A DNA stretch of 64,000 bases from Bernardetia sp. ABR2-2B (lineage in GTDB: Bacteria; Bacteroidota; Bacteroidia; Cytophagales; Bernardetiaceae): NCBI RefSeq assembly GCF_037126435.1, contig NZ_CP147020.1, forward strand, positions 1,587,293-1,651,292. Direction: 5' to 3'. The stretch's first letter is position 1; every line of letters starts with the position of its first letter. The notes under the pieces are model-generated. The model saw only the letters and a list, made by a program, of their open reading frames with translations. It was not told where the DNA came from and ran no database searches. This document shows, piece by piece, positions 13,401 to 64,000 of this stretch. A program made the translations under genes and the position numbers.

Positions 13401-16400
13401 ATAAGAAACTGCTTTTGGCGTTTCTCCTCGTTTCATATTGTACCACGCACCACCACCAAAACCATAGGCAGACAAAGAAGTAGTCATAGGAATACCTGTT
13501 TTTAGCAATGCCATTGCATCAAAATACCAGTATCTAAATCCTTCTTTTGTAACTTGATTATTTTTGTTTTTGATAGAAAGTGTTTTTCCAATCTGTAATG
13601 TAGCATCTACTTTTACTAGCTTTTGAATATCAACACTTACTGCACCTCTAAAACCATTACCAAATGTTTGGTCTTGTTTATAAATATCAACTTCTCCTGT
13701 AAAGTGAGCTACACCGATATTTGCATCAATATTAATACTGTTTAAAGAAGTTTCTTCATAACTTAACTTTTTAGTATTTTTATTATACTTAGAAAAAACA
13801 GTAAAAGTAGTTCCTCCTTTTATTCCGTTAGCAAGGTTTATAAGCGTGAGTTGTGGTGATAACTTTATCCCATATATTTCTCCATTGCCTTTTTGTACAG
13901 AAGTAAGTTCTAAAGGTTTCTCAGGATCAAAGGATAAAGGAAAGTCTGCCAAACGACTTTGTGGTTGGTTTGGGTTTTCTAAAGCAAACTTTGTAAAAGA
14001 CTGAATGAGCTTATTAGAGCCACTTTTTAAAGCTAGTTTTTCGAAACGAATATCAGGAAGTGAAAAACTAGATACATTATTTTTATCTAATTCTTCTTCT
14101 TGTCCTTCCGAATTTTTGGCTTTTCCATCTGCCCAGTTGATACTTATCGCTCCATTTAATTCGGCATCAACGCCCCATTTATTATTCTTTTCTTTGATGG
14201 TAATTTTCGAGTCTTCGTCCAAATCTAAAGTAGCCACCCAAGCTGACACTGAATACTCTTCATTAGTTATGACAGAAAAAATAAAATCAGCATCTCCATT
14301 TTGATTGGCTTGATTGATAGAGCCTTCATAACTCAAGGCTTCATCAGTCAGAGGAATTTTGAGGTTTCCTTCCATAAGTCCACCAGAAAGCGAACTATTT
14401 TTGAGTGTAATTCCAAACTTTTCAAGTGAAATAGCCCAGTCATCAACATTTCCATCATTTAAAGAAAGTAATTCTCCACTTGCATCAATTTTTCCAGAAA
14501 AACCTAACTTGTCTATGATAAATTCATCAGCTTCCAACACTAAAGCCTTTTTATCTTTCTTAAATACTTTTGGCAGCGTTACACTCAAGTTTTGAATATA
14601 AACTCCTACCCAATCATTTCCTTTTTGATGTTTTTGTTTGACAGAAGTAGGTGTTTTTTTACCTGACAAATCCAACGACAAAGAAGGCGCAGCAAAAACC
14701 AAGTTTTGAGCCGATGGCAGTACAAAAGAAGGATAATTAAAATCAGCTTCAAAAATCCAACCTCCAGCCTGTTCGATTTCTGTTTGGAAAGTTGCTTGTA
14801 GTTTTTTGTTTTCGTTCTGAACTACTTTGTTATCTTGATACGGCAAAACTTTATTTCTTGACCACTCCAAATGACCTTTTAAAGCTACGTTTTCGATTCC
14901 TTTACAACTAAAATTTGCATACGTATTTTGCTGTCCTTTTTCTAGGATTAATGTCAAATCATTCGAAAGTTTTAAGGTTTTATCACTAGAAAGTGAAATT
15001 CTACCTTCTGTATCAGCACAAAAACCATTCGGACGGATTCCCAAGCCTGTTCCTGTAAGCATAAAAAGGTCATTCTGTACAACTTGTGGAATTTCCACTC
15101 CCAAAACAGTGTGCATTTTGGCTTCCGTTGGAGAAAAAATAATTCCGACAATCGCCAAATTATAATTATTATTATCTAAACTTAAAGGCAAACCTATCGG
15201 AACATTTCCACCCAATTTAGAAACTTGTCTTGAGACATTTCCTAAAAACTGATTGATTTGTTTGGCTTTACTAGCGATGCTTTCCAAATCTGCATTTGGA
15301 TTTTCACTTATGGCTTGACTAATCAAGTTTTGATTATCTACCTTTGCATAAATATTTCCATCAAAGAGTTGAAAGTTATCATTTACTTTCAGATTATTAA
15401 ATTTTACTTTTATAGGAGCATTCAGAAAGGCTACCAAAATTGTCCCTTCTCCCGAATTATTTCCATTGATAGAAGTAATTTTCATCTTAAATTTTCCTGC
15501 AATTATTTCTTGTCCTACTGAAAGCTTTAGGGGTGCAGAAGGTGTAGGCGCAACAATTTGACAAGCAGCCATACATTCAGGCGAATCTTGTGGGTCTTTA
15601 GGAATGTTTGGATTATCGTCATCGTTTGGTAAATCACCTCCATCCACAACGACTACTACATCATCAGGAGGGGGAGGATTATCATCTTCTCCATCATTAT
15701 CGTTATCATCATCACCTTCGTTATCTCCATCACCCACAACTACAATTTTATCATCTTCATAAGTAAAAGAAGTAACAGGGCTGTGTCCTTGATTTTTGAA
15801 TTGAATCGAATTGCTAGGGTCGTAAGCCGTTACACGAAGCGCATATTTTCGTCCTTCTTGCAAAGGAGGCATCGCCAAAGTATATGAAAATGTATTTGTG
15901 ATAATATTATCTTTCTCAAAATAAGTTTGAATAGATGGATTATTAAAAGCATCGTTGATATTGAATAAATTATTTGCACTCATATCCACAATTTCTAAAC
16001 GATAACGAGTTTTTGAAGGCACACCAGCAGGAGTCCAAACAAAATTCACAAATTGAGGTGTACTAGGATTTATTTTGGCTTCATGAAGTGGCAAAACCAT
16101 AATTGGAGGGTCATAATTGGTAATGACAATCGAAGCACAACCAAACTCAGAAGATAAAAGTGTGTTATTCTGAAACTCAAAAGCCTTTATACACAATGAA
16201 TAAGCACCTTCTGGAAGAGCCTCATTTTGAGCCAATGTAGAAACAGAAACCCCTTGTATTTGTACGTCGTTTTCTGTTAGATTTGCATTAAAACTTTGCA
16301 GTTGGTTGTAAGTAAAAGTTCTTGTTTGTCGTGGATTTAGAACAATAGGAGCAGTCGGAAAGTAACTCTCTTTTACTCTGACAGAAACACCATTATTTCC

Positions 16401-16628
16401 TTCTAAAGAAGGAATTAGACGGATTTGCTTGGTTTCATTGCTTGTGTTGGTAAGCGTAATAATTACAGAATTTCCTCTATTGATATAATTTTCTAAATAA
16501 ATAGAATACGGAGGAACGACTGTAACAGTCACGTTTATAGGTTGTGAAAAAGCTGTTTGAATGTTAAGAATACAAACAAATAAAAATGCTAAAATTGATA
16601 GGTAAGTTTGGTATTTTTGTGTCCTCAT
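10467..16628 (-). CDS. giant (2053-aa) secreted protein: N-terminal Ig-like region, poly-Asp/Asn/Gly/Pro linker, then a very beta-strand-rich C-terminal region of about 1700 aa
   Basis: Signal peptide (…LNIQTAFSQP). An acidic low-complexity tract VVVGDGDNEGDDDNDNDGEDDNPPPPDDVVVVVDGGDLPNDDDNP (about aa 295-345). Long runs of alternating hydrophobic residues with frequent G/Y/F in the remainder. Same strand and tight spacing with the two downstream genes. Confidence 0.6.
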   Translation of the reverse strand: MRTQKYQTYLSILAFLFVCILNIQTAFSQPINVTVTVVPPYSIYLENYINRGNSVIITLTNTSNETKQIRLIPSLEGNNGVSVRVKESYFPTAPIVLNPRQTRTFTYNQLQSFNANLTENDVQIQGVSVSTLAQNEALPEGAYSLCIKAFEFQNNTLLSSEFGCASIVITNYDPPIMVLPLHEAKINPSTPQFVNFVWTPAGVPSKTRYRLEIVDMSANNLFNINDAFNNPSIQTYFEKDNIITNTFSYTLAMPPLQEGRKYALRVTAYDPSNSIQFKNQGHSPVTSFTYEDDKIVVVGDGDNEGDDDNDNDGEDDNPPPPDDVVVVVDGGDLPNDDDNPNIPKDPQDSPECMAACQIVAPTPSAPLKLSVGQEIIAGKFKMKITSINGNNSGEGTILVAFLNAPIKVKFNNLKVNDNFQLFDGNIYAKVDNQNLISQAISENPNADLESIASKAKQINQFLGNVSRQVSKLGGNVPIGLPLSLDNNNYNLAIVGIIFSPTEAKMHTVLGVEIPQVVQNDLFMLTGTGLGIRPNGFCADTEGRISLSSDKTLKLSNDLTLILEKGQQNTYANFSCKGIENVALKGHLEWSRNKVLPYQDNKVVQNENKKLQATFQTEIEQAGGWIFEADFNYPSFVLPSAQNLVFAAPSLSLDLSGKKTPTSVKQKHQKGNDWVGVYIQNLSVTLPKVFKKDKKALVLEADEFIIDKLGFSGKIDASGELLSLNDGNVDDWAISLEKFGITLKNSSLSGGLMEGNLKIPLTDEALSYEGSINQANQNGDADFIFSVITNEEYSVSAWVATLDLDEDSKITIKEKNNKWGVDAELNGAISINWADGKAKNSEGQEEELDKNNVSSFSLPDIRFEKLALKSGSNKLIQSFTKFALENPNQPQSRLADFPLSFDPEKPLELTSVQKGNGEIYGIKLSPQLTLINLANGIKGGTTFTVFSKYNKNTKKLSYEETSLNSINIDANIGVAHFTGEVDIYKQDQTFGNGFRGAVSVDIQKLVKVDATLQIGKTLSIKNKNNQVTKEGFRYWYFDAMALLKTGIPMTTSLSAYGFGGGAWYNMKRGETPKAVSYEQFETVDFDPNSEAGQTVSGTTFTPQKDKFGFKANMVLGLSGGADAASSFNADLGFEVFMRNDNVKGLALDSLILKGDGYFMQPIDLPMAEKINAVASASVRIKIDAIKPAFNMAGAINIKAGDVVQGNGNLELHFEPNKWYLNLGKWSKSQAMQDEPWNDKSRLNMNIDLKVTTLSYNGYFMMGTHIPQYLPSVPKKIRQTLNLPISQKAQYQEAQEGKGFAMGLGFRRALDAKFLFLYADFELFAGFDILLAKYSDETLCNNKSDFGINKWRAKGQAYGYFGGEAGFKGKLFGKEREFKIIDLKSAALVEVEAPNPSYLGGNFVVKGGLLGNRIKINMDFEFEFGEKCEFTGQGNKNPFDDYPLISQIAPKEGSKKASVMTDPSVSFNLGIGRDESQGITKYYSGNTYKLVVPAENEDEQDEVSTVYVRLQKAELSYQEGGKKIIVEGKTKFDKYQKEAYFVAKEALKPKTKYTFYVEVSGWEIENNIHTKLATQHKSTSFTTDTGLKKIPQSQIVSANPFARSRYAFKGARWGNVKLTKSICDQPLFEKLHISEGSTIFVTRFTDLKTGKSIDTDKVNCTFDQVNFQIPQLEGSTIYEISIIRIDKEGNNNLSAGANTNQIEKNIGGSSMAYYTALKGSRNSKKQVETKLLTYHFRTGKYNKMIDKMNKMSIKQAELATISIGNNQCAEVAMIALACDEPIDVVDAYGYVQATRKLGFGKNLDLTPPTTNGISLMTAYQNTNQFPQEYANEHFKHSILKAKYGEGILNFVPTFHPTRYYGLYNFGSNKTFQPPIYNLEMRNTIMFYRPHYQKVYRVGSNRNSSNYPSSLFKPKGITYTLPKTLISPYEIQQARAKAPKQNLNLGGLNLQINVPKPSKNQFDNNLGFDSNTKYYIPIIEYRNYILARDIQKLQKFAHNKALNVKDHFLQNGHYKGITPSKYQSFYTSFERPLYLLGSHNYTITLEGKSFNYKVKK

Positions 16629-16923: not shown

Positions 16924-19287
16924 TTAATCCTGTTTTTTTGTGAATATTTCTATTTTTTGCTTAATGATAGAATTGTTTTTTCTTGATACAGGGATAAGCT
17001 CATCGCCATAAAATAAGTGTAATTTGTAGCCTTGTGAGTTTCCAGAAATGTGTTTTACTTGATGAAGATTGATAAGATAACTTTTATGACAGCGAAAAAA
17101 TTGAGGAAAATCTTTTTCTAAAATTTCTGAAATAGATTTGAGTGTATTGCGAATTAGTTTTTTTGAAATGATTTTATTCTCTAAAAAAATAATTTCTAAA
17201 TAATTATCAGCAGCTTGAATGTAGAGTAAATTATCTGATTCTATTTTAAAATCTTCTTCTTTGTTTTCAGTTGGTATAGAGATAAGGTTAGATTTTATTT
17301 GCAATGATTCTGTAAGAGTAGGTTCTGTTTTTTTATGCTGTGATACTTCTAGTTGTTTCTCTACTTCCTCTATTTTTTCTAGTCTTTCAAATTCAATTCC
17401 TACAGAATTATTTTGAAACTGTTCTTTGTTATTAGGCAGCTTAGTAGTTTCATAGATCAATTTTCTCCTTGTTTCAAAATAATTTTTGATATAAAATGAA
17501 ATAAGAATAGGAAAAACAGCCACAGAAATAGTATAAAATTCAAATTTTAGGATTCCCCAAATTGTTAAGTCAATAAAACCAGCCCAATTAGCGTATAAAA
17601 TATTTACAAAACCTATTGTTCCAATATTGATAATGGTTACTACAAGTTCTTTTGCTACTGTCCAATTTTCAGTTTGAAATAGTTTAGGAAAAAAATAGAA
17701 TGCTACTACTTGAAATGCAAACATTACAGTAAAACAAATAAGTCCAGACCCAAAAGCGACCTCAAAAATATTTAATTGATGTCCGTAAGCTATTCCAAAA
17801 GGCTGAAAAATGAGCAAGAAAAAGCTGATAAACAGACTATAAACTACACAAGTCCAAATGCGTTTTTGAATAGAAGTTTCTAGTGGATACTGTCGTGTAA
17901 AAAATGAAATTATAGTTTCTTTACTTAAAGAAAACTGATTATTTCTAACTCTTTCTTCCTGTATTACGTTTTGTTTTGGTATAACTTTTTGGTTTTCTTT
18001 TTTAGTTTCTAAAGTCTGCAACTGCTTAATTTCATGTTCTTTTTTCAATACATTTCTTTTGTCTCCCAAAGCAAAAGAAATAAACAAAACTTCTAGGACT
18101 GAGCCTAATTGTACAGGATTTAAGTAATTACTAGGAGGTAACAAAACCAACGTTTGGGCTATGGCTAAGATAAAACCTAGTGTCAAGAATCCCCATCCTA
18201 ATAAATAATATTTGGCAGGTCTAAACCCTCGGTAATAACTTAAAATTCCTGTGATAAGCAATACAATTCCTAAGGTCAGAATTCCCACTTGTGATAACAT
18301 CCAAGCCTCAATTTTGAAGCTGGAAAAAACCAATAGAATAATCAGAAATCCAAAAACAATATAGAAGTTTAAAAGATATGAAAGCCATTTAGGCAATATA
18401 ATTTTTGCAAAAAAAGTCTTGGTAAAAATTACAGCAAAAATTTGCATCAGAGCAGCTTGTAGGATAATAAACTGGTTTAGCTCTGGTATTTCTGGCCACA
18501 AGTATTTAAAAGAATAGCTATAAATACTTGCCATAAAAAACATTGTAAAAAAAGCATAAAGCACATAAGTCAGATACACAAGTTCTCTATTAATCAGAAA
18601 AACAAAAAGGTTATATAAAATGACTAGAATCATAAAACCTAAGTATATGCCTTGAGCAAAATCAAAATCACGAACAAAGGCAAGGTAATTCTCTGCAGAC
18701 CAAGAACGAAAAGAAAACAAAAGGGGTTGTAGCGAACGGATGCGTATGTAAATCATACTTTCAGAAACTTCTTCGACTGGAAATGTAAAATAGCCCACTT
18801 GAAAAGGACGACTTGAAAAGGGGTAATTATCTCCTGTCGTAATTTGTTGAATAATTTTTCCTTGAGCATTTACTTGATAGAAAGTAATCTCATCTAAAGA
18901 ACCTGCTCCTAATTCAATACGGTTATCTCCTTTTGAGATACTTTGATAAGGTATTTTGAGCCAAAAAGACGAATAAGAACTTTCTAAATTTATATATTCT
19001 AATGTATTTTGTTCAAAATTATAGGATTCATTTCCTAGTAAGTCTTGAAGTGTGAGTGTTCTTTTAGCATCTTCAAGTATAGATACCTCTTTGCCTAACG
19101 TATGAAAAGTATAAGCCTGTGCTTTCAAAGACAGGCAAGTTAAAAGTGAGATAAAAAGGCTAAAAGTAAAGGCTACATAAACACACTTTTTAAATGATAT
19201 TCCCAAAGGGTATTGCTTTCTTAGTAATGAGACAAGAAACATAAAAAATAATAGTAGTAGTGGTAATTCTCTGATTGGGAATGTCAA
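16924..19287 (-). CDS. membrane receptor-regulator: 7TMR-DISM (extracellular DISMED2-like domain plus 7TM) fused to a C-terminal LytTR DNA-binding domain
   Basis: Signal/TM, an extracytoplasmic domain of about 170 aa, then 7 or more TM helices (typical 7TMR-DISM_7TM layout). After a coiled-coil linker, the C-terminal 100 aa match the LytTR fold motif (…LLYIQAADNYLEIIF…FFRCHKSYLINLHQV…). Confidence 0.65.
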   Translation of the reverse strand: MTFPIRELPLLLLFFMFLVSLLRKQYPLGISFKKCVYVAFTFSLFISLLTCLSLKAQAYTFHTLGKEVSILEDAKRTLTLQDLLGNESYNFEQNTLEYINLESSYSSFWLKIPYQSISKGDNRIELGAGSLDEITFYQVNAQGKIIQQITTGDNYPFSSRPFQVGYFTFPVEEVSESMIYIRIRSLQPLLFSFRSWSAENYLAFVRDFDFAQGIYLGFMILVILYNLFVFLINRELVYLTYVLYAFFTMFFMASIYSYSFKYLWPEIPELNQFIILQAALMQIFAVIFTKTFFAKIILPKWLSYLLNFYIVFGFLIILLVFSSFKIEAWMLSQVGILTLGIVLLITGILSYYRGFRPAKYYLLGWGFLTLGFILAIAQTLVLLPPSNYLNPVQLGSVLEVLFISFALGDKRNVLKKEHEIKQLQTLETKKENQKVIPKQNVIQEERVRNNQFSLSKETIISFFTRQYPLETSIQKRIWTCVVYSLFISFFLLIFQPFGIAYGHQLNIFEVAFGSGLICFTVMFAFQVVAFYFFPKLFQTENWTVAKELVVTIINIGTIGFVNILYANWAGFIDLTIWGILKFEFYTISVAVFPILISFYIKNYFETRRKLIYETTKLPNNKEQFQNNSVGIEFERLEKIEEVEKQLEVSQHKKTEPTLTESLQIKSNLISIPTENKEEDFKIESDNLLYIQAADNYLEIIFLENKIISKKLIRNTLKSISEILEKDFPQFFRCHKSYLINLHQVKHISGNSQGYKLHLFYGDELIPVSRKNNSIIKQKIEIFTKKQD

Positions 19288-20772: not shown

Positions 20773-22896
20773 TTAATACCCTCCTTGAAATTTTCGTACT
20801 CCCCATTCAAAACTAGCAAGTCCAATAATCAAGAGCATAATCCACCATAAATTAATTACTTCTGAAAGCTGTTCATTTCTAAAAACCGTCGGTGTAGGAA
20901 TCTGATTTTGTAGAGAATCTTGCAAAACTTGTAGATTATTAAGCGTATAAAAATTTCCTTTATTTTGCTGTGCCAGTCTTCGCATAACACCAAAATCTGC
21001 CGTAGCATTTAAGCTTTCCAATTTTATTTCTTTTACTGTAAATTGCCCGATTGAAACTTCTGTTTTCCCGTCTAGTTGAGTAGTTGCTTTAAAAGAATAT
21101 GCTCCCTCTGGAAGTGCAGAAGCAGAATATCTAAAGGGAGAAGCATTATTTGTAAAGGTATAAGTTCTTGTTTTTCCTTCTTCATCTTTAATTTCTAAAC
21201 GAATATTTTGCCCTAAAAGTGGTTCATAAATCGCATTATAAATTTCTACATCAAAACTCACACCATCAGAAGTAGAAAACTGTGAAGCTGTCGGCGCAAC
21301 TCTAAAACGTCTTTTGTCTTCTTTAGTAGAAAGATATTGAATTATTTTACTCAAAAGTGCATCATATCCTTCTTGATTTTTATTTTCTGCATATTCATTT
21401 AATCGCCATTGCCACGTATTTTCGGCAAGCCAAACTCCTGCTTTTTTGCCATTTTTTTCACTCATCACTACTAATGGCTTTTTGGTCTGAATATTTCCAA
21501 CTCGTTGATACAACATAATTTCAGCTTGTGGCGAAATATCATAATCAGCAAACGGAACAAGCGCAGGAGGATAGGAAGCAAAACGGCTTTTTTGTTCGTC
21601 TGTTAGATAAAACTTTGAAAAATTGGAGTTCCAAAATGGAATTACTTTATCAGATTGATTCCCTAAAGGACGAATTTTCACACCTGTATTCAATGAATTA
21701 AAAGCATTATAATCACTTTGCGCTCCAATAACAAAAAGCTCGGCAGAAGTGAGTTTGCGAAGTTTTTCTAAAACAGGTAGTGGTCTTCCCATTTTATCAG
21801 GAAATTGATGATAAATAATAAGGTCATACTTATCCTCTAATTTAGTAGTACGTAAATGAGGCAAGTGAATATAAGGCAAATAAATATCAAACTTGTAATT
21901 CTCATTTTTTTCTATCGCTGCACGAAATGCCTTTATATCTGGGTGAGGCGCAGCAGCAACTAAAAGAATTTTTTCTTTGCTATCAATAATGTCAATATAA
22001 GCGTGGGCTGTATTATTTTGCTTTGTAAACTCTCCTTCTTGTGGCACAATCGTAACAACATAATGCTGAATGCCTTTTGAGGTTGCTTTTATCAAAAACT
22101 CAATACTTTTAAGGTCATTTGGATTAGAACTAAATTTCGCTTTTTTGGTAGAAATGGTTTTTCCATTTTGTGATAAAATTACCGTAATTTCTCTATTCTC
22201 AAAACCTGTATGTGTAACTTCTGCCACGATTGGAAATTGATTTCCTAAATACGCCATCTTATTATGAAATAGACTTTTCAATATTATATCTTTTTTTGGA
22301 ATCGTATCGCCTACTCCAATTGTTTGAAGTGAAAAAGAATAGGGCGAAATATCAGGTGCAAGTCCTTGATTGTAAGCACCATCAGAAAGCAAAACTACAT
22401 TAGAAAGGTTACGATTTTCAAATTCACTTTGAATACTTTTGAGCAAATCACTAATAGGAGAAGAAGTATAATTGAAGTTTATTTTATTCGTATTATTATC
22501 AATATTATTTCTCAAACTATCATTTTCTAGTTCTCTCAAAGTTCTGTATTCCACATCAAATCCTTTTTCTTCAAGGTTTTGAGCTGTTTGTTGGATAGAA
22601 TTTAAAGCCGAATTTATTTTAGTAGAATCTTCTTGTAATAAAATTGAAGCCGAATTATCAATCGCAAAAACAACCGTTGGGTTTTCGTAACGAGTAATAA
22701 ATTGCTGCATCAAAAGTCCTATTAACAGGATTGCAAGAACAGAAACCCACAAAAAACGAATGGCAGCCAATGCTTTTTGCCAGTTTTTGCCCCACGGCGA
22801 ACTTCTTTTATAATACAACAAAGCAGCATAACCAGCTCCTAAAAGCAAAGCTACAAGTATCCAAGCACTAGAATATTCTGTTAAAAAGATAGGCAT
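20773..22896 (-). CDS. membrane protein with an N-terminal double-transmembrane (two_anch/TIGR02226-like) domain and a C-terminal TM anchor
   Basis: The N-terminus has two TM helices separated by a short loop (…AWILVALLLGAGYAALLYY…FLWVSVLAILLIGLLM…). A large extracytoplasmic region follows. The terminal helix is WWIMLLIIGLASF. Confidence 0.55.
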   Translation of the reverse strand: MPIFLTEYSSAWILVALLLGAGYAALLYYKRSSPWGKNWQKALAAIRFLWVSVLAILLIGLLMQQFITRYENPTVVFAIDNSASILLQEDSTKINSALNSIQQTAQNLEEKGFDVEYRTLRELENDSLRNNIDNNTNKINFNYTSSPISDLLKSIQSEFENRNLSNVVLLSDGAYNQGLAPDISPYSFSLQTIGVGDTIPKKDIILKSLFHNKMAYLGNQFPIVAEVTHTGFENREITVILSQNGKTISTKKAKFSSNPNDLKSIEFLIKATSKGIQHYVVTIVPQEGEFTKQNNTAHAYIDIIDSKEKILLVAAAPHPDIKAFRAAIEKNENYKFDIYLPYIHLPHLRTTKLEDKYDLIIYHQFPDKMGRPLPVLEKLRKLTSAELFVIGAQSDYNAFNSLNTGVKIRPLGNQSDKVIPFWNSNFSKFYLTDEQKSRFASYPPALVPFADYDISPQAEIMLYQRVGNIQTKKPLVVMSEKNGKKAGVWLAENTWQWRLNEYAENKNQEGYDALLSKIIQYLSTKEDKRRFRVAPTASQFSTSDGVSFDVEIYNAIYEPLLGQNIRLEIKDEEGKTRTYTFTNNASPFRYSASALPEGAYSFKATTQLDGKTEVSIGQFTVKEIKLESLNATADFGVMRRLAQQNKGNFYTLNNLQVLQDSLQNQIPTPTVFRNEQLSEVINLWWIMLLIIGLASFEWGVRKFQGGY

Positions 22897-55067: not shown

Positions 55068-57689
55068 ATGAACACATTTCTCACCTCTTCTTTTTGTTGT
55101 TTTTACAAAAACCTTTTTTGTCTTTGTTGTTGTTGCTGTTGTATAGCTTGTCATTTTTGCCTAGCTCAAAATAGTAATGACTTAGAAGCATCTATCAAGA
55201 CAAATACGAGATTAGAAACACAGATTCGAATAAAAGGAAAGGTTTCTACCTCTTCTAATTTTGACAAAAACGAACCTCTTTTTGGTGCAACTATCGTCGT
55301 TCAGGAGCTGAATAAATACGCTCAAAGTGATACAGATGGCAATTTTTTATTAGAGTTTTTTACTACCTCTTCTACTTCCCATCAATCTACTTATACATTA
55401 GTTGCTTATTTGTATGGCTTCAAAACGGTTTCAAAAGAGATAAATATTAGAGAAAAAAACACATTAACTATTGATTTTAACTTAGAAGAGCTACAAGATT
55501 CTTTGAAAACAATAGTGGTAGAAGGAAATTCAGAATTAGAAAACTCTAATTTAATGGCTCGTCTTAATACCGTTGATGGAATGGGGATTTATGAATCTAA
55601 AAAGACGGAAGTAATTGTTTTGGACAACACAACAGCAAATTTGGCAGCCAATAACTCAAGACAAATTTATGCAAAAGTAGCAGGGCTGAACGTTTGGGAA
55701 AGTGATGGAGCAGGTATTCAGTTAGGAATCGGAGCTAGAGGACTTTCACCCAACCGAACAGCAAATTTTAATACTCGTCAAAATGGTTATGATATTTCTG
55801 CTGATGCACTCGGTTATCCTGAAAGCTATTATACGCCACCAGTTGAGGCTGTTGAGAGAATTGAACTTGTGCGTGGTGCAGCTTCTTTGCAGTATGGAAC
55901 GCAGTTTGGTGGAATGCTCAATTTCGTAATGAAAGATGCTCCTAAAAACAAAAACTTTGAGACTAACTTACGCCAAACAGTAGGTTCTTATGGCTTTACA
56001 AGTAGTTTTGTTGATGTAGGTGGGAATTTGGGAAAGACAAATCAAAACGGAGATTCAAAACTAAGTTATTACGGATTTTATCAATATAAACGTGGCGATG
56101 GTTGGAGAGAAAACTCTGGCTTTGATGTGCATACAGGTTTTGCAAAACTTACTTTCCGTCCTTCTTCAAAATTCAAAATTTCGGTAGAATATACTGGAAT
56201 GAATTACCTTGCACAACAAGCTGGTGGACTTACTGATGCTATGTTTGAGCAAAATCCACGTCAGTCGATTAGAGATAGAAACTGGTTTGCCGTAAACTGG
56301 AACTTAGGAGCAGTTATTTTAGATTATAAAATTTCTAATAAAACAAAAATCAATAGCCGTACTTTTGGGCTTTTGGCAGGAAGAAAAACAGTAGGAAATT
56401 TGGATAAGATAAGTGTCATTGATTTTGGACAAAATAGAACTTTAATAGATGGGGATTTCAAAAACTTTGGAAATGAAACTCGCCTTTTACATCGTTATTC
56501 TATTCATTTTTTAGGAGAAAAATTAAAGAAACAAACACACGCTTTTATCACAGGTTTTAGATATTACAGTGGCTTCACAACACAACGACAAGGCGATGCA
56601 GATGCAACAAATAAACCTAACTTTGCTTTCTTAAACTCTGAAAATTTAGAAAATTCTTCCTACCAGTTTCCAAATCAAAATGCTTCTTTTTTTATAGAAA
56701 ATGTCTTTAACCTTTCTGATAAATGGAGCATTACCCCTGGAATTAGAGCCGAATATATCAAAACACAAGCTGACGGATTTTATAAAGAACGAGTTTTTGA
56801 TTTTGCAGGAAATTTGATTTCTGAAACCAAAAATGAAGAAAATTTAGAACGCCCTAGAAGTTTTGTTTTAGGTGGAATAGGAATTAGTTATAAACCTGTT
56901 TTGAATAACAAAAACGAATTAGAGATTTATGCAAATTTCTCTCAAAATTATCGTTCGGTTACCTTTAGTGATTTGCGTATTCAGAATCCAAATTTGGTAA
57001 TTAGTCCAGATATAAAAGATGAAAGTGGTTATAATGCAGACTTAGGTTTTCGTGGTAAAATCAATACGCTTTTACAATTTGATGTAAGTCTTTTTTACTT
57101 GAATTATAATGACAGAATCAGTCAAGTAGAACGTACAGGCGTTGCTCCAACGTACACTCCCTATCGTTTTAGAGGAAATATCGCTCAAGCTAGAATTTAT
57201 GGAATTGAATCACTTTTAGAATTTAATGTCGGAAAATTAGGTAATAATTGGATTGAGAATATTCTACCAAAATCATATTTGGGACTTTATTTGAATACTT
57301 CTATTCTGAAAAGTAAATATACAAATTCAGAAGAAACAGCAATTTTGGGAAGAGAAGTTGAGCTTGTTCCACCTATTACGCTGCGTACAGGTTTGCAGTT
57401 TGGTTACAAAGATTTCAAACTCTCTTATCAATATTCCTACACACATGAGCATTTTACAGATGCCACCAACGTTGTCAGAAGTGCGACGGCTGTTAGTGGA
57501 ATTATTCCTTCATATTATGTGATGGATTTGTCGATGAGCTATTCTTACAAATGGCTAAAACTAGAAGGAAGCATAAATAATCTCACAAACAATTCTTATT
57601 TTACAAGACGTGCAGATGGCTATCCTGGACCTGGAATTATTCCTGCTGATGCTAGAGCTTTTTTCTTGACTTTGGGAGCTAGTTTTTAG
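55068..57689 (+). CDS. TonB-dependent outer-membrane receptor with an N-terminal carboxypeptidase-regulatory-like domain
   Basis: CarbopepD_reg-like block (GATIVVQELNKYAQSDTDGNFLL), a plug region and a long beta-barrel ending …FFLTLGASF (C-terminal Phe). The signal region is unusually Cys-rich (CLCCCCCCIAC). Confidence 0.8.
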   Translation: MNTFLTSSFCCFYKNLFCLCCCCCCIACHFCLAQNSNDLEASIKTNTRLETQIRIKGKVSTSSNFDKNEPLFGATIVVQELNKYAQSDTDGNFLLEFFTTSSTSHQSTYTLVAYLYGFKTVSKEINIREKNTLTIDFNLEELQDSLKTIVVEGNSELENSNLMARLNTVDGMGIYESKKTEVIVLDNTTANLAANNSRQIYAKVAGLNVWESDGAGIQLGIGARGLSPNRTANFNTRQNGYDISADALGYPESYYTPPVEAVERIELVRGAASLQYGTQFGGMLNFVMKDAPKNKNFETNLRQTVGSYGFTSSFVDVGGNLGKTNQNGDSKLSYYGFYQYKRGDGWRENSGFDVHTGFAKLTFRPSSKFKISVEYTGMNYLAQQAGGLTDAMFEQNPRQSIRDRNWFAVNWNLGAVILDYKISNKTKINSRTFGLLAGRKTVGNLDKISVIDFGQNRTLIDGDFKNFGNETRLLHRYSIHFLGEKLKKQTHAFITGFRYYSGFTTQRQGDADATNKPNFAFLNSENLENSSYQFPNQNASFFIENVFNLSDKWSITPGIRAEYIKTQADGFYKERVFDFAGNLISETKNEENLERPRSFVLGGIGISYKPVLNNKNELEIYANFSQNYRSVTFSDLRIQNPNLVISPDIKDESGYNADLGFRGKINTLLQFDVSLFYLNYNDRISQVERTGVAPTYTPYRFRGNIAQARIYGIESLLEFNVGKLGNNWIENILPKSYLGLYLNTSILKSKYTNSEETAILGREVELVPPITLRTGLQFGYKDFKLSYQYSYTHEHFTDATNVVRSATAVSGIIPSYYVMDLSMSYSYKWLKLEGSINNLTNNSYFTRRADGYPGPGIIPADARAFFLTLGASF

Positions 57690-57794: not shown

Positions 57795-58166
57795 ATGATT
57801 AGTGGTAATGCTAATAAAAACAGAATGAAGGAGATTATTGAAATAATTGAATCTAATTCAATTACAGTAGATAATTCTCGTTTTATAGAAAGTCTCCTAA
57901 TAGAATTTAATAAAGAGAGACGGAAAATGAATCTTAACCCTGATAATCATTCCTGTTTGATGTTAGATATTACAGAACAACGGTGGACTAATGTAAAAGA
58001 ACAAGTAGCTAACCAATCAAAGTCTTACAATAAATCTATTGTCAAACATATGAAATTGGTTATTGAAGGAAAAGAGGAAAGGATAGAATTAAATAGATTT
58101 GAGGGAATGCATATTATACAGTTAATTACTGAATCAATTAAAAAAAAAATTGGTTTGAATTCATAG
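57795..58166 (+). CDS. hypothetical protein
   Basis: 123-aa ORF with no recognisable motifs. Confidence 0.35.
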   Translation: MISGNANKNRMKEIIEIIESNSITVDNSRFIESLLIEFNKERRKMNLNPDNHSCLMLDITEQRWTNVKEQVANQSKSYNKSIVKHMKLVIEGKEERIELNRFEGMHIIQLITESIKKKIGLNS

Positions 58167-58235: not shown

Positions 58236-58475
58236 CTACAAAACCACAATACCAAATTCAATTCCTTCTTTTACTAAAGGTTTGAAGTAATGGTTCATTC
58301 TTCCTACGTGAGTATCGATATCATATTCGCCTCTAAGATTACTTTTATTTACTCTTAGCAACACTTTTTTCTCGTTAGATGTATCTATTTCTATTGCCAA
58401 ACCAAACAGATTTTCAAACTGTTGTGAATAAGATGTAATTGTAGAATAGGCTTCTTGATTCTTAAACTGTTCCAT
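58236..58475 (-). CDS. hypothetical small protein
   Basis: 79-aa ORF convergent with the previous gene. No motifs. Confidence 0.3.
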   Translation of the reverse strand: MEQFKNQEAYSTITSYSQQFENLFGLAIEIDTSNEKKVLLRVNKSNLRGEYDIDTHVGRMNHYFKPLVKEGIEFGIVVL

Positions 58476-58615
58476 TTTTTTGGGTTGATTTGTTGTAAGT
58501 TAAGTTTATTCCCCATTTCAACATTTTGCACTAAAAAAATGTTATTGTTTGCCACAAAAAAATCACAAACCAAAAGACTTTGATTTGTGATTTGAGCTAA
58601 ATAAAAATTGATTTT

Positions 58616-59065
58616 TTATCTAAAAGAAACATTTTTTTTATTCTCAACAGAATAATAAATAGCGACTTCTTCTCCTACGCTCAAATTATCATATTGATTT
58701 TTGGTAAGTTCTACGCTTGTAGAAGTAAGGTCGTCTGTTCTGCCAATTTCTTTTCCTGTGTTTTTCACTCCTTCTCCGATATCTTCCAAAACATCTTCCA
58801 AGTTTTCATTTACTCCGTTTGTATTTTTTTCTGATTGAGAAACTTCAGGAGAGGCAAAATAATACAAAACAGCAAAATATTTCAAATCTGCACCTTTATT
58901 TTCTGTGTACTTATTAGTAATACGAGCTTCTACTGGAACTTTATCATCAAAAACATCTGTTCCTTGAGAAACTGTTCTTTTGGCACATGAAGAAAATAGC
59001 AAAGCAAAAGAAAATAAGAGTGCAATTATAAAAGAACTGTTTTTTAGTTTTTTTGAGGTTAGCAT
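58616..59065 (-). CDS. hypothetical lipoprotein
   Basis: Met at 59065 gives MLTSKKLKNSSFIIALLFSFALLFSSCAK (lipobox). Confidence 0.5.
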   Translation of the reverse strand: MLTSKKLKNSSFIIALLFSFALLFSSCAKRTVSQGTDVFDDKVPVEARITNKYTENKGADLKYFAVLYYFASPEVSQSEKNTNGVNENLEDVLEDIGEGVKNTGKEIGRTDDLTSTSVELTKNQYDNLSVGEEVAIYYSVENKKNVSFR

Positions 59066-59281
59066 AATTCTAAAAATTGAGTTTAAAAAATAAAGATTAA
59101 AAAATTTAGATTTTTGAAAATCTACACTATATAACATTCTTGATTATAGAATTGTTTGATTTGCTCCAATTATTGATTTCATTTTTATTTTGTGTAAATT
59201 ACTCTAAAGTCTCTTATTGTTAATAAGAGATTTTGTAAAAAACCAAGTTCACGCTTATCATTTTTATCAAAATATTCAATT

Positions 59282-62233
59282 ATGAAAAAGCAATCTTTTT
59301 TACTCTCATTTTTCTTACTGCTTACTTTTAGCTTTACATTTTTTATCTCTCCTAACCTGTATGCACAAGGTTGGCTAGACAAAATCAAGAAAAAAGCAAA
59401 AGAAAAAACAGAAGAAATCCAAGAAAAAATTGAAGAAGCAGTAGAAGAAAAAACCGAAAAAGAAGTTGAGACTGCAACAGAAAAAGAGTTTAAAGAGCTT
59501 CGTACTTCTTACGATACTTCTACTTTTGGTTATGCCATTGCTTTTATTGATAATACTGATTTGTATGAAGAGCAACAAAGAGGACAAAAAGCCAAGCGTT
59601 TTTTGATGCGCTTATCTGATAATATAGGAATCACAGAAAACACACAAAAAGACCCTTTAGCAAAGGCAAAAAATTATTATGATTTGGGAGAAATAGCTTA
59701 CTCTTCTCGTTATTATAAGAGGGCTGAAGAAAATTTCTTAAAATCTGAAGAAGAGTTCAAAAAATTAAATAAAACTTCTCATCCACTTTATCCTAAACTT
59801 GTAAATAATTTAGGCTTACTTTATTATACCATAAAACACCTTTCAGATGCTGAGGAATATATTCAAGAAGCACTCAAAATAAGCCAAAAAGAAAAAGGAG
59901 AAAACTACACAGCAGCCCTAAACAATCAAGCAATGATTTGGAAAGACAAGGGGCTTTATACAGAATCAGAAAAACAATTTGAACAAATCAAGAAAATTCA
60001 AACTCAAAATAAGCAAGAGTATAGCATATCGGCAGCTATTGTTTTGAATAACCAAGCTATTTTATTTCAAGAATTAGGACGTTATAAGGAAGCTGAAAAG
60101 TACCTGTCTCAAGCCATGGAAATTGCTGCGCTGACTTTAAAAGGAACATCAAATACATATCAGCGTTTTTTAATTAATCAAGCTCTTTTGTATCAACAGA
60201 TGAAGCGTTATCAAGAGGCTGAAACTCTTTTTCTGCAAAGTATAGAGTTAAAAGAAAAACGAATAGGAACACGCAACCACCCAGATTTGGCACACATGCT
60301 GACTGGTTTGGCTGGCTTATATATAGAAATAGGAAAAACTGAAAAGACAGAGGAATTACTTTTAGAAGCTCAACGAATTTATGAAAAAAAACTGGGAGCA
60401 GACAATCTTTCTTATGCAAAGGCAAGTAATTATTTAGGTCAATTTTATAAGAATCAAAATCAACTAAAAAAATCAGAAAAACAACTCAAAATAGCTCTAA
60501 AAATCAGAGAACAACAGCTTGGAGAAAATCATGTCAAGACAATAGAAACAAAAGAACAGTTAGCTTTACTGTATTGGAAACAAGATAAAGTAGAAAAAAG
60601 TATAGAGTTATTTGAAAATGTAATTGCTCATAATTATGATTTCATCAAAAACTACTTTCCTGCAATGAGCGAAACTGAAAAAGAACGATACTGGGACAAA
60701 ATCCGTCCTACTTTCTTGCGTTTTTACAATTTTGTCGTGGATACAGAAAAAAAATATCCCAATGAATATCCTATGCTCGTTACACAGATGCACAACGCAC
60801 ATCTTGCAACAAAAGCAATTTTACTCAACACAACCAACCGAATAAAAAAAGGTGTTTTGAGAAGTAATAATCAAAGATTAAAAAATGATTACAAAAAATG
60901 GATAAAAAATAGAGAACAACTTATAAAACTTTATGCCTACACACCCGAAGAGCTTAAAGAACAAGGAATTGACAGAGACAAAATAGAAAAAGAAACTAAT
61001 CAAATTGAAAAAAGATTATCAGAGAGCCTTCCAAATCTTTTCAAAGAAAATGACCTCAAAACATATCAAGATATTCGCAATGCTTTACCACAAAACACTG
61101 CTTTTGTAGATATAATTTCGTTTCCAAAATACAATAATGACCAACTCTCAGAAAATCAATATGTTGCCTTGATTGGAACTCCAGATTATGATGCTCCAAA
61201 AATCGTTTTCTTAAAAGATGGAAATGAACTAGATAATGAAGATTTTTTCTATAACCGAAACAATATTCAATTTCAATTAGAAGACAGAGAAAGTTTTTTA
61301 GCTTATTGGAAACCAATTTATGACAAACTGGAAAAAATAAAATCAGAAGAGCCTACAGAGAGAATTTTTGTTTCTTTAGATGGAATTTATAATCAAATCA
61401 GTATAAATACGCTCCAAGTTTCTGACACTTCGTATGTCATTGACCATCAAAACCTTATATTTCTAAATAATTTAAAGGACTTGACAAGGAAAAAAAGTTA
61501 TGCTAATACAACCAAAGATAACAAGGTCGTTTTGGTAGGTTATCCAAATTATGGAAATCAAGGAAAAATCACACCTCTCCCTGGAACTAAAGTAGAGATA
61601 GAGACTATCAAAACTTTATTGCAAAAAAGTGGACAAAGAACACAAACGATATTAGGAAATTCGGCAGATGAAAAAACAATTAAGGCTATCCAAAAACCTC
61701 GTATTTTACATATTGCAACTCACGGTTTTTTCTTGGCTGATAGTAAAGTTTCTAGTGGAGACAATGCTCGTTCGTTTGGTTTACAGGCAAACTTAGTTCG
61801 TCAGAATCCACTTTTGCGTTCGGGTTTGATGTTTACTGATGCAGAATCAGCTTTAAATACCCAAAACTCAAAAGAAAAAACAGAAAGCAACAACGGAATC
61901 TTGACAGCCTATGAAGCTAGAGGATTAGATTTGGAAGGAACAGAACTTGTCGTTTTGAGTGCCTGTGAAACAGGTTTGGGTGATATAAAAGCAGGTGAAG
62001 GAGTTTACGGACTTCAAAGAGCCTTTCAACTGGCAGGAGCAAAATCAACTATTATGAGTCTTTGGCAAGTGAGTGATGAAGCAACAGCCAAACTAATGAC
62101 CTACTTCTATGAAAATTGGGCAACAACTAAAGATGTAAATAAAGCATTCAGAGAAGCACAAGAAAAACTCAAAACAGAATACCCAGAGCCTTATTTTTGG
62201 GGTGCTTTTATGCTTATTCAGACAGAGAAGTAA
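59282..62233 (+). CDS. secreted TPR-repeat protein with a C-terminal CHAT (caspase-like) domain
   Basis: Signal peptide. A coiled-coil KE-rich segment. About 8 TPR-like repeats. CHAT hallmarks: His motif ILHIATHGFF and Cys motif VVLSACETGLGD, then …GLQRAFQLAGAKSTIMSLW…. Confidence 0.75.
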   Translation: MKKQSFLLSFFLLLTFSFTFFISPNLYAQGWLDKIKKKAKEKTEEIQEKIEEAVEEKTEKEVETATEKEFKELRTSYDTSTFGYAIAFIDNTDLYEEQQRGQKAKRFLMRLSDNIGITENTQKDPLAKAKNYYDLGEIAYSSRYYKRAEENFLKSEEEFKKLNKTSHPLYPKLVNNLGLLYYTIKHLSDAEEYIQEALKISQKEKGENYTAALNNQAMIWKDKGLYTESEKQFEQIKKIQTQNKQEYSISAAIVLNNQAILFQELGRYKEAEKYLSQAMEIAALTLKGTSNTYQRFLINQALLYQQMKRYQEAETLFLQSIELKEKRIGTRNHPDLAHMLTGLAGLYIEIGKTEKTEELLLEAQRIYEKKLGADNLSYAKASNYLGQFYKNQNQLKKSEKQLKIALKIREQQLGENHVKTIETKEQLALLYWKQDKVEKSIELFENVIAHNYDFIKNYFPAMSETEKERYWDKIRPTFLRFYNFVVDTEKKYPNEYPMLVTQMHNAHLATKAILLNTTNRIKKGVLRSNNQRLKNDYKKWIKNREQLIKLYAYTPEELKEQGIDRDKIEKETNQIEKRLSESLPNLFKENDLKTYQDIRNALPQNTAFVDIISFPKYNNDQLSENQYVALIGTPDYDAPKIVFLKDGNELDNEDFFYNRNNIQFQLEDRESFLAYWKPIYDKLEKIKSEEPTERIFVSLDGIYNQISINTLQVSDTSYVIDHQNLIFLNNLKDLTRKKSYANTTKDNKVVLVGYPNYGNQGKITPLPGTKVEIETIKTLLQKSGQRTQTILGNSADEKTIKAIQKPRILHIATHGFFLADSKVSSGDNARSFGLQANLVRQNPLLRSGLMFTDAESALNTQNSKEKTESNNGILTAYEARGLDLEGTELVVLSACETGLGDIKAGEGVYGLQRAFQLAGAKSTIMSLWQVSDEATAKLMTYFYENWATTKDVNKAFREAQEKLKTEYPEPYFWGAFMLIQTEK

Positions 62234-62354
62234 AAAAATAGCGCATTGATAATCAACAACTTTTAAACTAATTTAAGAATATAATAAACTATTCAGACTT
62301 AAACAACGTACATACACAAATCTAATTTATTCAAATAGCCAAAAAATATTTTCC

Positions 62355-64000
62355 ATGAAAATATACGAAATAGTTGTTATTGCCTTATTCATTATTACTA
62401 TTATTCTTCAATTTTTCAATATAGGCGAAGATACAGCCTTGATAATTTTGCTTTCGGCAGATACTCTTTTGGCTCTTTCTTATTTTATTGGTGGCTATTG
62501 GTTATTTAAAAAGAAACAAAATGATGAGGAAGGAAATAAAAATAAAGCTATTTCTATTCTTGGAGGTTTTGCTTTTGGTATTGCTCTTATTTGCTTTTGG
62601 ACTAGGATAATAGTTACTCCAAATGAAATTATATCTTATCTTCCTTTTGCAAATATTGTATTTTTCGTAATTCTTTTGATTTTAATAATTATCAAAAGAA
62701 ATGATTCTATTTTCACAAAAAATAATAAGCCTATTTTGATTCGTTCTTTTGTCATTCTTATCATAACCTGTTTTTTCTTTTATGTTCCTATAGAATTTGA
62801 GCCTTATAATGATTTGATTCGTTCTATGAACGTAAGTAGCAAAAGATTACAGCACAATCTAAATATGGCAAAATACCACGAGAAAGCTAAAATAGAATTA
62901 GATAATGAAAATTATGAAAAAGCTGTTGAATATGCTGAAATAGCTGAATTAGAAGGTAGAAGAGGTTTTTTGCTTCCTGATAACCCTATTTTTTTAGAAA
63001 ATGGAGAAGTAGATACTACCTTTTTTAAAAAATTACCTTTGAGAAATATGAATCTTGTATATGCTAGACTTTATACTGCTTATACTAATTTGGCAAATGA
63101 GAATTTAGAAAATGATGATGATCAACAAGCTCTAAAAAATTATGAAATAGCGCATCAAATTCTTTACATCTATAACCTTAATGATGGACAATGGGAACAA
63201 CAAAATGTCATTTCTTTCGCTAATATGGGTAAAGCTTTGAGTTACTTAAATCGATTTGAAGAAGCTGATGATGAATTTAACAAGGCTTTTTTATTAATTG
63301 ACTCTTCAAATGTTGATTCAAAAAAAATTAGCTTTGCTTATAGTGTAACTGCGAAATCTTTAGCTATGAGAGAGCTTTATGAAGAATCAAATAACTATCA
63401 TAAAGCTTCTATTGATATTCAATTACAAAGTTCTATACATACAGATAGTAAAGAATATTTAGCTGAAAACTATATGGAAATGGGTAAGAATTATGTTTTT
63501 TTATTAAAAACAGATAAAGCTATACAAGCTTATCAACAAGTATTTCATTATTCAAATAAAAATAGTGATACATACAGGCAAACTTGTATTTATTATGGAA
63601 TTGTAAATTTTCAACTTTATAACTATGAAAAAGCTGAATCTATTTTTTTGGAATGTATAAAACTATATGGAAATATACAAGACGGACTATCAAATGTGGG
63701 CGTAAGTAAAAATCTTCTAGCAAGAAACTATATTCAACTAAATAAATACAAAGAGGCTGAAAAATTCTTGCAAGAAGGAATCGAAATTACAAGGACAGAA
63801 GAAGGAAAGACAAGTTCGAATTATGTGTTTGCTTTATCTGTCTATGCAAATCTAAATTCTATTTTGAGTAATTATAAAGAAGCAGAAAAGCAATATCAAG
63901 AAGCATTTGAATTAAGTAAAAACAGATCTGGAAAGAACAGCTCTGAAACCATTCAATTGTTCATTCAACTAGCAAACACGAAGATAAATCTTTCTAAGTT
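62355..64000 (+). CDS. TPR-repeat membrane protein (3' end outside window)
   Basis: ATG at 62355. 4 TM helices in the first roughly 150 aa, then repeated TPR-like helices (…YEKAVEYAEIAEL…, …YHKASIDIQL…). The frame is open to the window end. Confidence 0.55.
   Translation, partial: MKIYEIVVIALFIITIILQFFNIGEDTALIILLSADTLLALSYFIGGYWLFKKKQNDEEGNKNKAISILGGFAFGIALICFWTRIIVTPNEIISYLPFANIVFFVILLILIIIKRNDSIFTKNNKPILIRSFVILIITCFFFYVPIEFEPYNDLIRSMNVSSKRLQHNLNMAKYHEKAKIELDNENYEKAVEYAEIAELEGRRGFLLPDNPIFLENGEVDTTFFKKLPLRNMNLVYARLYTAYTNLANENLENDDDQQALKNYEIAHQILYIYNLNDGQWEQQNVISFANMGKALSYLNRFEEADDEFNKAFLLIDSSNVDSKKISFAYSVTAKSLAMRELYEESNNYHKASIDIQLQSSIHTDSKEYLAENYMEMGKNYVFLLKTDKAIQAYQQVFHYSNKNSDTYRQTCIYYGIVNFQLYNYEKAESIFLECIKLYGNIQDGLSNVGVSKNLLARNYIQLNKYKEAEKFLQEGIEITRTEEGKTSSNYVFALSVYANLNSILSNYKEAEKQYQEAFELSKNRSGKNSSETIQLFIQLANTKINLSK

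Follow-up and report, generated by a model that had tools for sequence, protein, structure and literature searches.

An exported TPR-CHAT protein of Bernardetia sp. ABR2-2B is an ordinary member of a very large Bacteroidota family and a predicted periplasmic caspase-like protease

The described proteins most similar in structure to the one considered here combine helical repeats with a C-terminal CHAT domain. The best structural match is Csx29 of the type III-E Craspase (PDB 8EEY, 7Y9X; Foldseek E = 5.9e-14, identity 12-15 %), which has TPR repeats at its N-terminus and a CHAT domain with a His/Cys dyad at its C-terminus, and whose protease activity is allosterically gated. Csx29 is a cytoplasmic protein of about 700 aa that works in complex with Cas7-11/gRAMP and, once target RNA has activated it, cleaves Csx30. 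In separase, too, a CHAT/caspase-like domain comes after helical repeats (Foldseek E about 1e-10), but this enzyme is far larger, eukaryotic and nuclear/cytoplasmic, is regulated by securin and Cdk1, and is an analogue in architecture only. The precedent for a periplasmic TPR-CHAT protein, and the only one studied, is DdvA, for which a ligand-gated envelope protease was proposed but not demonstrated, and whose dyad was seen in a resting geometry (PMC11506125). DdvA resembles our protein in fold (Foldseek probability 1.00, E about 1e-9) and in its canonical His-Cys dyad, but has features of its own: one TM anchor, a cytoplasmic zinc-binding anti-sigma domain, an ECF sigma partner and control of a CBASS/CRISPR island. 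Kinesin light chains (KLC), eukaryotic cargo adaptors without a protease domain, share only the repeats: their 42-residue TPRs (TPR_12/TPR_10 families) are 27-31 % identical between KLC1/2 and our protein, and the asparagines of the groove align.

We analysed a window of 64,000 nucleotides of Bernardetia sp. ABR2-2B, in which the TPR-CHAT gene was found at 59282..62233 on the + strand, encoding 983 aa as claimed in the initial annotation. The product consists of a signal peptide, eight KLC-type TPRs, a helical linker and a C-terminal CHAT domain. The gene is supported by its open reading frame, by Pfam matches to the CHAT and TPR families, by a 100 % identical database entry (P0001 of the same strain, named by NCBI "CHAT domain-containing tetratricopeptide repeat protein") and by an AF2 model with a mean pLDDT of 80.6 and a pTM of 0.79. 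Both Pfam and the model place TPR repeats at the N-terminus and CHAT at the C-terminus, and the structural matches extend over the full length. Most of the initial sequence-level description held, with two details corrected and one left without support; of its interpretation, the protease-type CHAT and the export stood, while the three-gene unit and the signalling or defence complex found no support.

The signal peptide proposed earlier occupies residues 1-28 (59282..59365, + strand). The protein has a single hydrophobic segment, at residues 5-23, followed by LYA|Q, and the predicted signal peptidase I site (...SPNLYA|QG) would expose Gln29. In Bacteroidota, glutamine stands at +1 of signal peptidase I substrates, the so-called Q-rule (PMC5837995), and the N-terminus matches this pattern of a hydrophobic signal, small-x-small and Gln at +1. 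Q29 is kept in at least 90 % of 50 family members. An N-terminal hydrophobic core is present in 109 of 120 homologues, and a small residue plus Q after the core in 98 of the 120. Export of the protein through a Sec/signal peptidase I signal with a Q-rule glutamine is thus supported at the sequence level, and the family of ~950-aa Bacteroidota TPR-CHAT proteins is predicted to be exported as a whole. No Pfam match to a T9SS C-terminal sorting domain (Por_Secre_tail / TIGR04183-like) was found in the protein, as the CHAT domain reaches residue 979 of 983, and T9SS cargo was ruled out on this ground.

Residues 29-126 (59366..59659, + strand) form a low-confidence N-terminal region, as judged from the conservation profile and a pLDDT of 39-67. 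A coiled coil had been suggested at residues ~30-80, but this stretch is K/E-rich low-complexity sequence without conservation and with a pLDDT of 39-52; the coiled coil is not established and was rejected. The stretch is followed, at residues ~77-92, by the family motif Y-D-(S/T)-(S/T)-x-F-x-Y-A...D-N, in which D78, A85 and N91 are nearly invariant. This acidic-aromatic motif (YD-S/T-S/T-x-F-x-YA) could occupy the KLC-like TPR groove as a pseudo-ligand and so cause autoinhibition.

The TPR array spans residues 127-461 (59660..60664, + strand), and the "about 8 TPRs" noted initially correspond to eight helix pairs in the AF2 model. Pfam TPR_12 matched with E = 3e-36, and TPR_12, TPR_10 and TPR_2 all exceeded their cutoffs. 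A sequence search of the PDB returned the TPRs of KLC1/2 (E = 3e-30) as the only kind of match, with none for the CHAT domain. Among the invariant columns is a ladder of asparagines, N214/N215, N256/N257 and N299, about 42 aa apart and located at about position 8 of helix A in TPR3-5 according to conservation and the model. The groove with this ladder is probably a binding site for a peptide through which the substrate is selected or the enzyme gated. The array is followed by a helical linker domain at residues 464-601 (60671..61084, + strand), defined by conservation and by helices over the same residues in the model, with the conserved motif FP-MSE-EK--YW. The linker occurs together with CHAT in the best 150 representatives.

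The CHAT caspase-like domain covers residues 606-980 (61097..62221, + strand). The HMM match to PF12770 was far above its cutoff (E = 7.9e-64, 216.3 bits against a cutoff of 24, residues 677-979 against model positions 13-287 of 289). The domain was modelled mostly at a pLDDT of 80-95 and shows the caspase/hemoglobinase alpha/beta fold. Foldseek matched the model to the CHAT-containing chains of Csx29, separase and DdvA with a probability of 1.00 each, and these were also its best full-length PDB matches (E = 5.9e-14, 1e-10 for human separase and 1.4e-9, respectively). The initial annotation had described an intact His/Cys dyad (ATHGFF/SACETG), and alignment of the homologues showed no loss of it: His814 (codon 61721-61723, + strand, motif HIATHGFF) is present in all 120 sequences and Cys895 (codon 61964-61966, + strand, motif LSACETG) in all 118 that are not gapped at this column. 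These sequence features support the assignment of the protein to the clan CD caspase-like, protease-type CHAT proteins. One could suppose that it is not a hydrolytic endopeptidase at all, acting instead either as a TPR scaffold with a ligand-binding CHAT domain or as a clan-CD transpeptidase or processing enzyme (PorU, sortase-like) on envelope proteins. Activity has been reported for no periplasmic CHAT protein, the dyad of DdvA is in a resting geometry, and the loop after Cys895 (residues 897-908) has a pLDDT below 50. However, the invariance of His, Cys and the motifs around them (HIATHG, LSACETG) in 118-120 sequences is unexpected for a pure scaffold, and nothing specific points to transpeptidation, which makes this explanation quite improbable in our view.

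The likeness to Csx29 also raises the question of a role as an anti-phage or conflict effector protease, comparable to Csx29 of Craspase or to gasdermin-activating CHAT/caspase-like proteases, and the initial annotation had mentioned signalling or defence complexes. Csx29 chains are the best structural matches, and CHAT domains are common in such systems (PMC11506125). Nevertheless, the cleavable signal peptide is conserved family-wide, whereas the proteases named act in the cytoplasm; PADLOC returned nothing above noise for the protein and its neighbours, none of the adjacent genes codes for Cas7-11, Csx30, a gasdermin, an NTPase or an ECF-sigma/anti-sigma factor, and the gene lies among housekeeping genes in conserved chromosomal synteny. 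We therefore consider a defence effector hardly credible, and the export of the protein together with the lack of partner genes led us to reject a Craspase-like or gasdermin-type system. For type III-E Craspase in particular there was no PADLOC match, the protein has a signal peptide and none of the partners of Csx29 is present, the neighbours being a TonB-dependent receptor, a lipoprotein and a TPR membrane protein. A DdvA-type anti-sigma factor was considered and rejected as well. No anti-sigma or sigma Pfam domain was detected in the protein or its neighbours, and where DdvA is anchored the Bernardetia protein begins with a cleavable signal peptide of 28 residues; it lacks the anti-sigma domain, an adjacent sigma factor and nearby defence genes, and its sequence likeness to DdvA is below phmmer detection.

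Two neighbouring genes had been grouped with the TPR-CHAT gene. Upstream and divergent lies a gene for a predicted lipoprotein of 149 aa (58616..59065, - strand), identified from its open reading frame and from comparison of its start and lipobox with two related loci, L001 and L003. Its signal ends in MLTSKKLKNSSFIIALLFSFALLFSS-C, so lipidation is predicted, and the lipobox LFSSC is kept in the window and in both of these loci. The earlier description of a divergent lipoprotein was therefore sound, apart from the start: this is most likely the internal Met at 59065 rather than 59137, since a stop codon interrupts the upstream extension in the orthologue from L001. The lipoprotein had no match in Pfam, NCBIfam or PADLOC and belongs to no known family. 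Downstream, an open reading frame with its ATG at 62355 runs off the window (62355..64000, + strand, 548 of 747 codons); the full-length protein is P0122, of 747 aa. The long TPR array seen earlier was recovered (TPR_12), but the protein has five hydrophobic segments (6-24, 28-46, 65-83, 95-113 and 126-144) instead of the four transmembrane segments reported, and its AF2 model shows five N-terminal helices followed by all-helical repeats (pLDDT 86). Loops 2 and 4 are rich in K/R, and by the positive-inside rule the array is predicted to be periplasmic. No enzymatic domain was detected by Pfam, the full-length orthologue showing TPR families only. The protein has a paralogue, P0130. NCBIfam and PADLOC gave no specific family for the three genes or for two small open reading frames. 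The scan for terminators found 3 against 2.4 expected, and the scan for sigma-70 promoters, whose scope does not include Bacteroidota promoters, found 33 promoter-like sites against 27.6 expected.

The initial annotation had treated the three genes as a unit, and one may imagine an envelope module in which the lipoprotein, the exported TPR-CHAT protein and the 5-TM TPR protein cooperate, with the membrane TPR protein as, for example, a receptor, regulator or substrate, and an envelope signal is passed on by regulated proteolysis. The trio is indeed conserved in the window and in three related loci of the Bernardetia clade (L001-L003), and two further Bernardetia contigs probably hold both genes, as matches to the CHAT and to the membrane TPR protein come from contigs of identical length (8,428 and 32,404). 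The two TPR arrays are both predicted to face the periplasm, and the CHAT and membrane TPR genes share a strand, 121 nt apart (62234-62354), with no predicted terminator between them. Against this, the 74 %-identical CHAT orthologue at locus L004 keeps the TonB-dependent receptor on its upstream side and the 191-aa and 200-aa genes on its downstream side, yet both the lipoprotein gene and the membrane TPR gene are missing. Neither neighbour was found at six loci of family members with 37-45 % identity (L008-L011, L015 and L016), and three loci with homologues of the membrane TPR protein (L012-L014) have no CHAT gene within 7 kb. The membrane TPR family is also tiny (14 proteins in the database search) compared with roughly 1e4-1e5 CHAT relatives, and it diverges much faster: in L001 its identity to the window is 51 %, while CHAT reaches 77 % and the TonB receptor 91 %. 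The co-occurrence of CHAT and the membrane TPR protein is thus confined to loci of the Bernardetia clade (L001-L003), the proposed linkage is largely absent and a conserved functional unit of the three genes does not follow. The lipoprotein gene is restricted to the Bernardetia clade, and both it and the 5-TM TPR protein are genus-level neighbours, not defining components of a system. We regard the three-gene module as unlikely; a functional link between CHAT and the membrane TPR protein specific to this clade is conceivable because most Bernardetia genomes retain the latter gene on the same strand at a gap of 121-200 nt.

The TPR-CHAT gene itself is an ordinary, already annotated member of a very large exported Bacteroidota family. 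A search of public data with the linker and CHAT domain recovered 93,986 cluster representatives at E <= 1e-3 and 10,703 at E <= 1e-30. The Bernardetia protein is 35-46 % identical to the homologues of ~930-990 aa among its best matches in the NCBI Bacteroidota TPR-CHAT family, with a query coverage of 92-100 % and the same architecture, and is set apart only by its clade-specific neighbours. There is one match per named genome among the best 120 homologues. The genes flanking CHAT are of housekeeping type and differ between clades; the gene stands in conserved chromosomal synteny in Bernardetia, and in another clade the order RsmF / AP_endonuc_2 / CHAT is conserved in three loci. The family is therefore standalone and vertically inherited. 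Literature searches on the Bacteroidota family found no functional or biochemical study, the sole mention from Bacteroidota being of unrelated CHAT proteins in the T6SS region of B. fragilis.

The reading that we prefer, and consider reasonably probable, is that the protein is a standalone, Sec-exported, soluble periplasmic cysteine endopeptidase resembling separase, Craspase and DdvA, and one orthologue of this very large family. What we infer about its location, its proteolytic activity, its gating by a ligand and its substrate runs as follows. Sec would export the preprotein and signal peptidase I would cut before Gln29, and the mature protein would stay in the periplasm, because it has neither a T9SS C-terminal domain nor a lipobox. 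The eight KLC-type TPRs may form a superhelix whose concave Asn ladder binds an extended peptide of the target or of a regulator, as suggested by the conservation and by the way KLC-type and LGN-type TPRs bind peptides. Binding of the peptide would present the substrate to, or allosterically align, His814/Cys895, and the CHAT domain would then cleave an envelope protein, a step modelled on Craspase and separase and on the mechanism suggested for DdvA.

A more specific version, which we think distinctly unlikely, would make the ~950-aa proteins soluble, ligand-gated "site-1" periplasmic proteases that are triggered by peptides through the Asn-ladder groove and cleave membrane-anchored regulators; they would be the trans-acting equivalent of DdvA's periplasmic domain. 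The 5-TM TPR protein of Bernardetia would in that case have been recruited recently as a membrane partner or substrate. If this were true, a caspase-like protease would be a widespread component of envelope signalling across a phylum. The locus described here contributes just one more orthologue, and its apparent three-gene module is a genus-level neighbourhood. What the analysis clarifies is that the whole ~950-aa family appears to be exported, that the dyad and the TPR groove are invariant, and that the gene is a standalone chromosomal one outside defence islands. If many Bacteroidota do have a caspase-like protease in their periplasm, substrate trapping would be a reasonable way to study it.

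The G+C content of the window is about 31 %, and three genes lie between 58.6 kb and its end. These are a predicted lipoprotein of 149 aa (58616..59065, minus strand; ORF with the lipobox LFSSC), a TPR-CHAT protein of 983 aa (59282..62233, plus strand; ORF and Pfam) and a membrane TPR gene, here called TM-TPR, whose translation starts with the ATG at 62355 on the plus strand and continues past the window end. The ORF finder extended the lipoprotein to 59137, and its orthologue in Bernardetia sp. OM2101 (locus L001) has a stop codon inside this extension; the lipobox is kept in the window, L001 and the related locus L003. Upstream of the three genes, Pfam recognised a TonB-dependent receptor (55068..57689), and the genes beyond it have housekeeping roles (TruB, a TMEM175-like channel, an acyltransferase, an aminotransferase, NuoA and others). 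Pfam and PADLOC revealed neither mobile-element nor defence genes in this neighbourhood.

The initial annotation had described the 983-aa product as carrying about eight TPRs and a CHAT domain with an intact His/Cys dyad. Pfam assigned residues 677-979 to CHAT (PF12770, E = 7.9e-64), and TPR_12, TPR_10, TPR_2, TPR_1 and TPR_8 exceeded their cutoffs. Across 120 aligned homologues, His814 (HIATHGFF) was present in 120/120 sequences and Cys895 (LSACETG) in all 118 sequences ungapped at that column, and the same residues were invariant in a curated 50-sequence alignment. The AlphaFold2 model built on the latter (mean pLDDT 80.6, pTM 0.79) contains eight helix pairs at residues 127-461, an entirely helical linker (464-601) and an alpha/beta domain (606-980). 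Its top full-length Foldseek matches in the PDB, all with probability 1.00, were the TPR-CHAT subunit Csx29 of type III-E Craspase (E = 5.9e-14), human separase (E about 1e-10) and the TPR-CHAT domain that the Myxococcus anti-sigma factor DdvA carries in the periplasm (E about 1e-9). Given the Pfam, alignment, AlphaFold2 and Foldseek results, the domain description and the dyad are therefore correct, and by its sequence the protein is a genuine member of Pfam CHAT. The proposed coiled coil was not retained as a name for residues 29-126, which are K/E-rich, weakly conserved and modelled with low confidence, and hold a single short conserved acidic-aromatic motif.

The family is very abundant and the 983-aa protein is an ordinary member of it. 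A phmmer search with the linker and CHAT domain (residues 440-983) against 1.84 billion cluster representatives resulted in 93,986 matches at E <= 1e-3 and 10,703 at E <= 1e-30. More than 150 were under E = 1e-100; among the matches listed, all bear the module C-terminally in proteins of 900-1,450 aa. The exact protein is already known, as database entry P0001 is 100 % identical, and its descriptive name in NCBI and UniRef is correct. We found no experimental work on the Bacteroidota TPR-CHAT family in the literature searched.

Regarding export, hydropathy showed only one hydrophobic segment (residues 5-23), followed by NLYA/QG. Gln29 is kept in at least 90 % of CHAT-family members in the curated alignment; 109 of 120 homologues have an N-terminal hydrophobic core, and in 98/120 it is followed by a small residue and Gln. 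This pattern is the 'Q-rule' of signal peptidase I substrates in Bacteroidota (PMC5837995), and the previously noted signal peptide holds, with A/Q as its predicted cleavage site. A T9SS C-terminal domain is absent, since in the Pfam match CHAT stops only four residues short of the protein's end, which rules out a T9SS cargo. The simplest reading of these sequence features is that the protein would be soluble and periplasmic. Two of the 120 homologues, P0037 and P0060, display a lipobox-like sequence (ISAGC and LFVSC) in place of the signal peptidase I site, and some versions of the exported protein may thus be lipid-anchored.

The downstream protein was thought to have four transmembrane segments and a long TPR array. 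Its full-length entry P0122 (747 aa, named 'tetratricopeptide repeat protein') upholds the array, but hydropathy revealed five hydrophobic segments rather than four. The AlphaFold2 model (pLDDT 86) consists of five N-terminal helices and then TPR-like helical repeats alone, and Pfam found TPR families only in a full-length orthologue. Loops 2 and 4 are rich in K/R, which by the positive-inside rule would place the N-terminus in the cytoplasm and the TPR array in the periplasm. The family comprises 14 proteins of about 745-768 aa, mainly from Bernardetia. A second 5-TM TPR paralogue (P0130, 745 aa, 41 % identity) is encoded elsewhere on the chromosome of Bernardetia sp. ABR2-2B.

We compared gene linkage by tblastn of the window proteins against all fetched loci and by ORF maps. 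The lipoprotein, CHAT and TM-TPR genes occur together in L001 and in two Cytophagales MAGs (L002 and L003). Locus L004 has a CHAT orthologue (74 % identity) whose upstream neighbour, 153 nt away, is the TonB receptor known from the window, and the same 191-aa and 200-aa genes start 115 nt downstream; tblastn and the ORF map showed no lipoprotein gene and no TM-TPR gene there. Both were also absent from 6/6 loci of CHAT family members with 37-45 % identity, whose gene contexts differ, and three loci of TM-TPR homologues (29-40 % identity) had no CHAT gene within 7 kb. The genes are therefore linked as neighbours at the level of a genus, and the conserved pairing of CHAT with the downstream TPR gene largely fell away. 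Of the suggested exported TPR-CHAT pair, the exported CHAT protease-like protein stands, on sequence and fold, but the conserved pair does not. A clade-specific functional link of CHAT and TM-TPR might exist: the genes lie on one strand, 121-200 nt apart, and each TPR array is predicted to be periplasmic. TM-TPR has diverged more from its L001 orthologue (51 % identity) than CHAT (77 %) or the TonB receptor (91 %).

Three of the six distant loci, on independent contigs, share another synteny of RsmF methyltransferase, AP_endonuc_2 and CHAT, which is a different clade-specific neighbourhood (AP_endonuc_2-CHAT region: L010 5994-9850, L015 5053-8829, L016 5054-8796). The CHAT member lies 38-83 nt downstream of AP_endonuc_2 (a xylose-isomerase-like TIM barrel), which a divergent RsmF-type methyltransferase adjoins; L015 has a second TPR-CHAT paralogue (908 aa) 2 kb downstream. 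In L003 (10001-12974) the CHAT orthologue is split into two ORFs (206 and 773 aa), and in L002 (9227-9730) the lipoprotein N-terminus is out of frame; these may be indel errors of MAG assembly or real pseudogenisation.

Among the smaller ORFs, that of 79 aa between the TonB receptor and lipoprotein genes (58236..58475, minus strand) is probably a real small gene. Its identity in L001 and L002 (90-92 %) is above that of the adjoining lipoprotein (61-75 %); it had no match in L003 or L004 and no known family in Pfam, PADLOC or NCBIfam. A hairpin with a 15-bp stem and a T-run (58560..58593, minus strand), just 3′ of the lipoprotein stop codon, is a plausible terminator separating the two. The 123-aa ORF upstream of the three genes (57795..58166, plus strand), with a counterpart in 0/4 related loci and no family above noise, may be strain-specific or no gene. 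Elsewhere on the minus strand, a 2,053-aa ORF (10467..16628) had no Pfam family at E <= 1e-5, and further large ORFs had no Pfam match (20773..22896, 707 aa; 8313..10403, 696 aa; 6512..7966, 484 aa). The product of the minus-strand gene at 16924..19287 joins the extracellular and 7TM modules of 7TMR-DISM to a LytTR DNA-binding domain, and would be a one-component membrane sensor-regulator.

The 983-aa protein is built like members of the separase/Craspase/DdvA TPR-CHAT class and by analogy might work alike. A Craspase component is ruled out, as Cas7-11 and Csx30 genes are missing, PADLOC gave no match and the protein is exported. A DdvA-type anti-sigma factor is likewise ruled out: unlike DdvA, the Bernardetia case lacks an anti-sigma domain, a TM anchor and an ECF sigma gene.

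The sequence has the features for export by Sec and signal peptidase I, and an invariant catalytic dyad lies inside a caspase-like fold. The TPRs by themselves matched kinesin light chain (27-31 % identity), and asparagines N214/215, N256/257 and N299 are invariant and recur once per repeat, near position 8 of helix A in TPR3-5. Through asparagines placed in this way, KLC-type and LGN-type TPRs hold peptides in an extended form. In the most likely mechanism, the TPR groove would bind a peptide from a target or regulator, and this binding would present the substrate or allosterically align the His814/Cys895 dyad, as happens in Craspase and separase. Similar gating of the dyad was proposed for DdvA (PMC11506125). 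An envelope protein would then be cleaved. A bolder reading, which we consider rather improbable, is that members of the Bacteroidota TPR-CHAT family would act in trans as ligand-gated site-1 proteases in envelope signalling.
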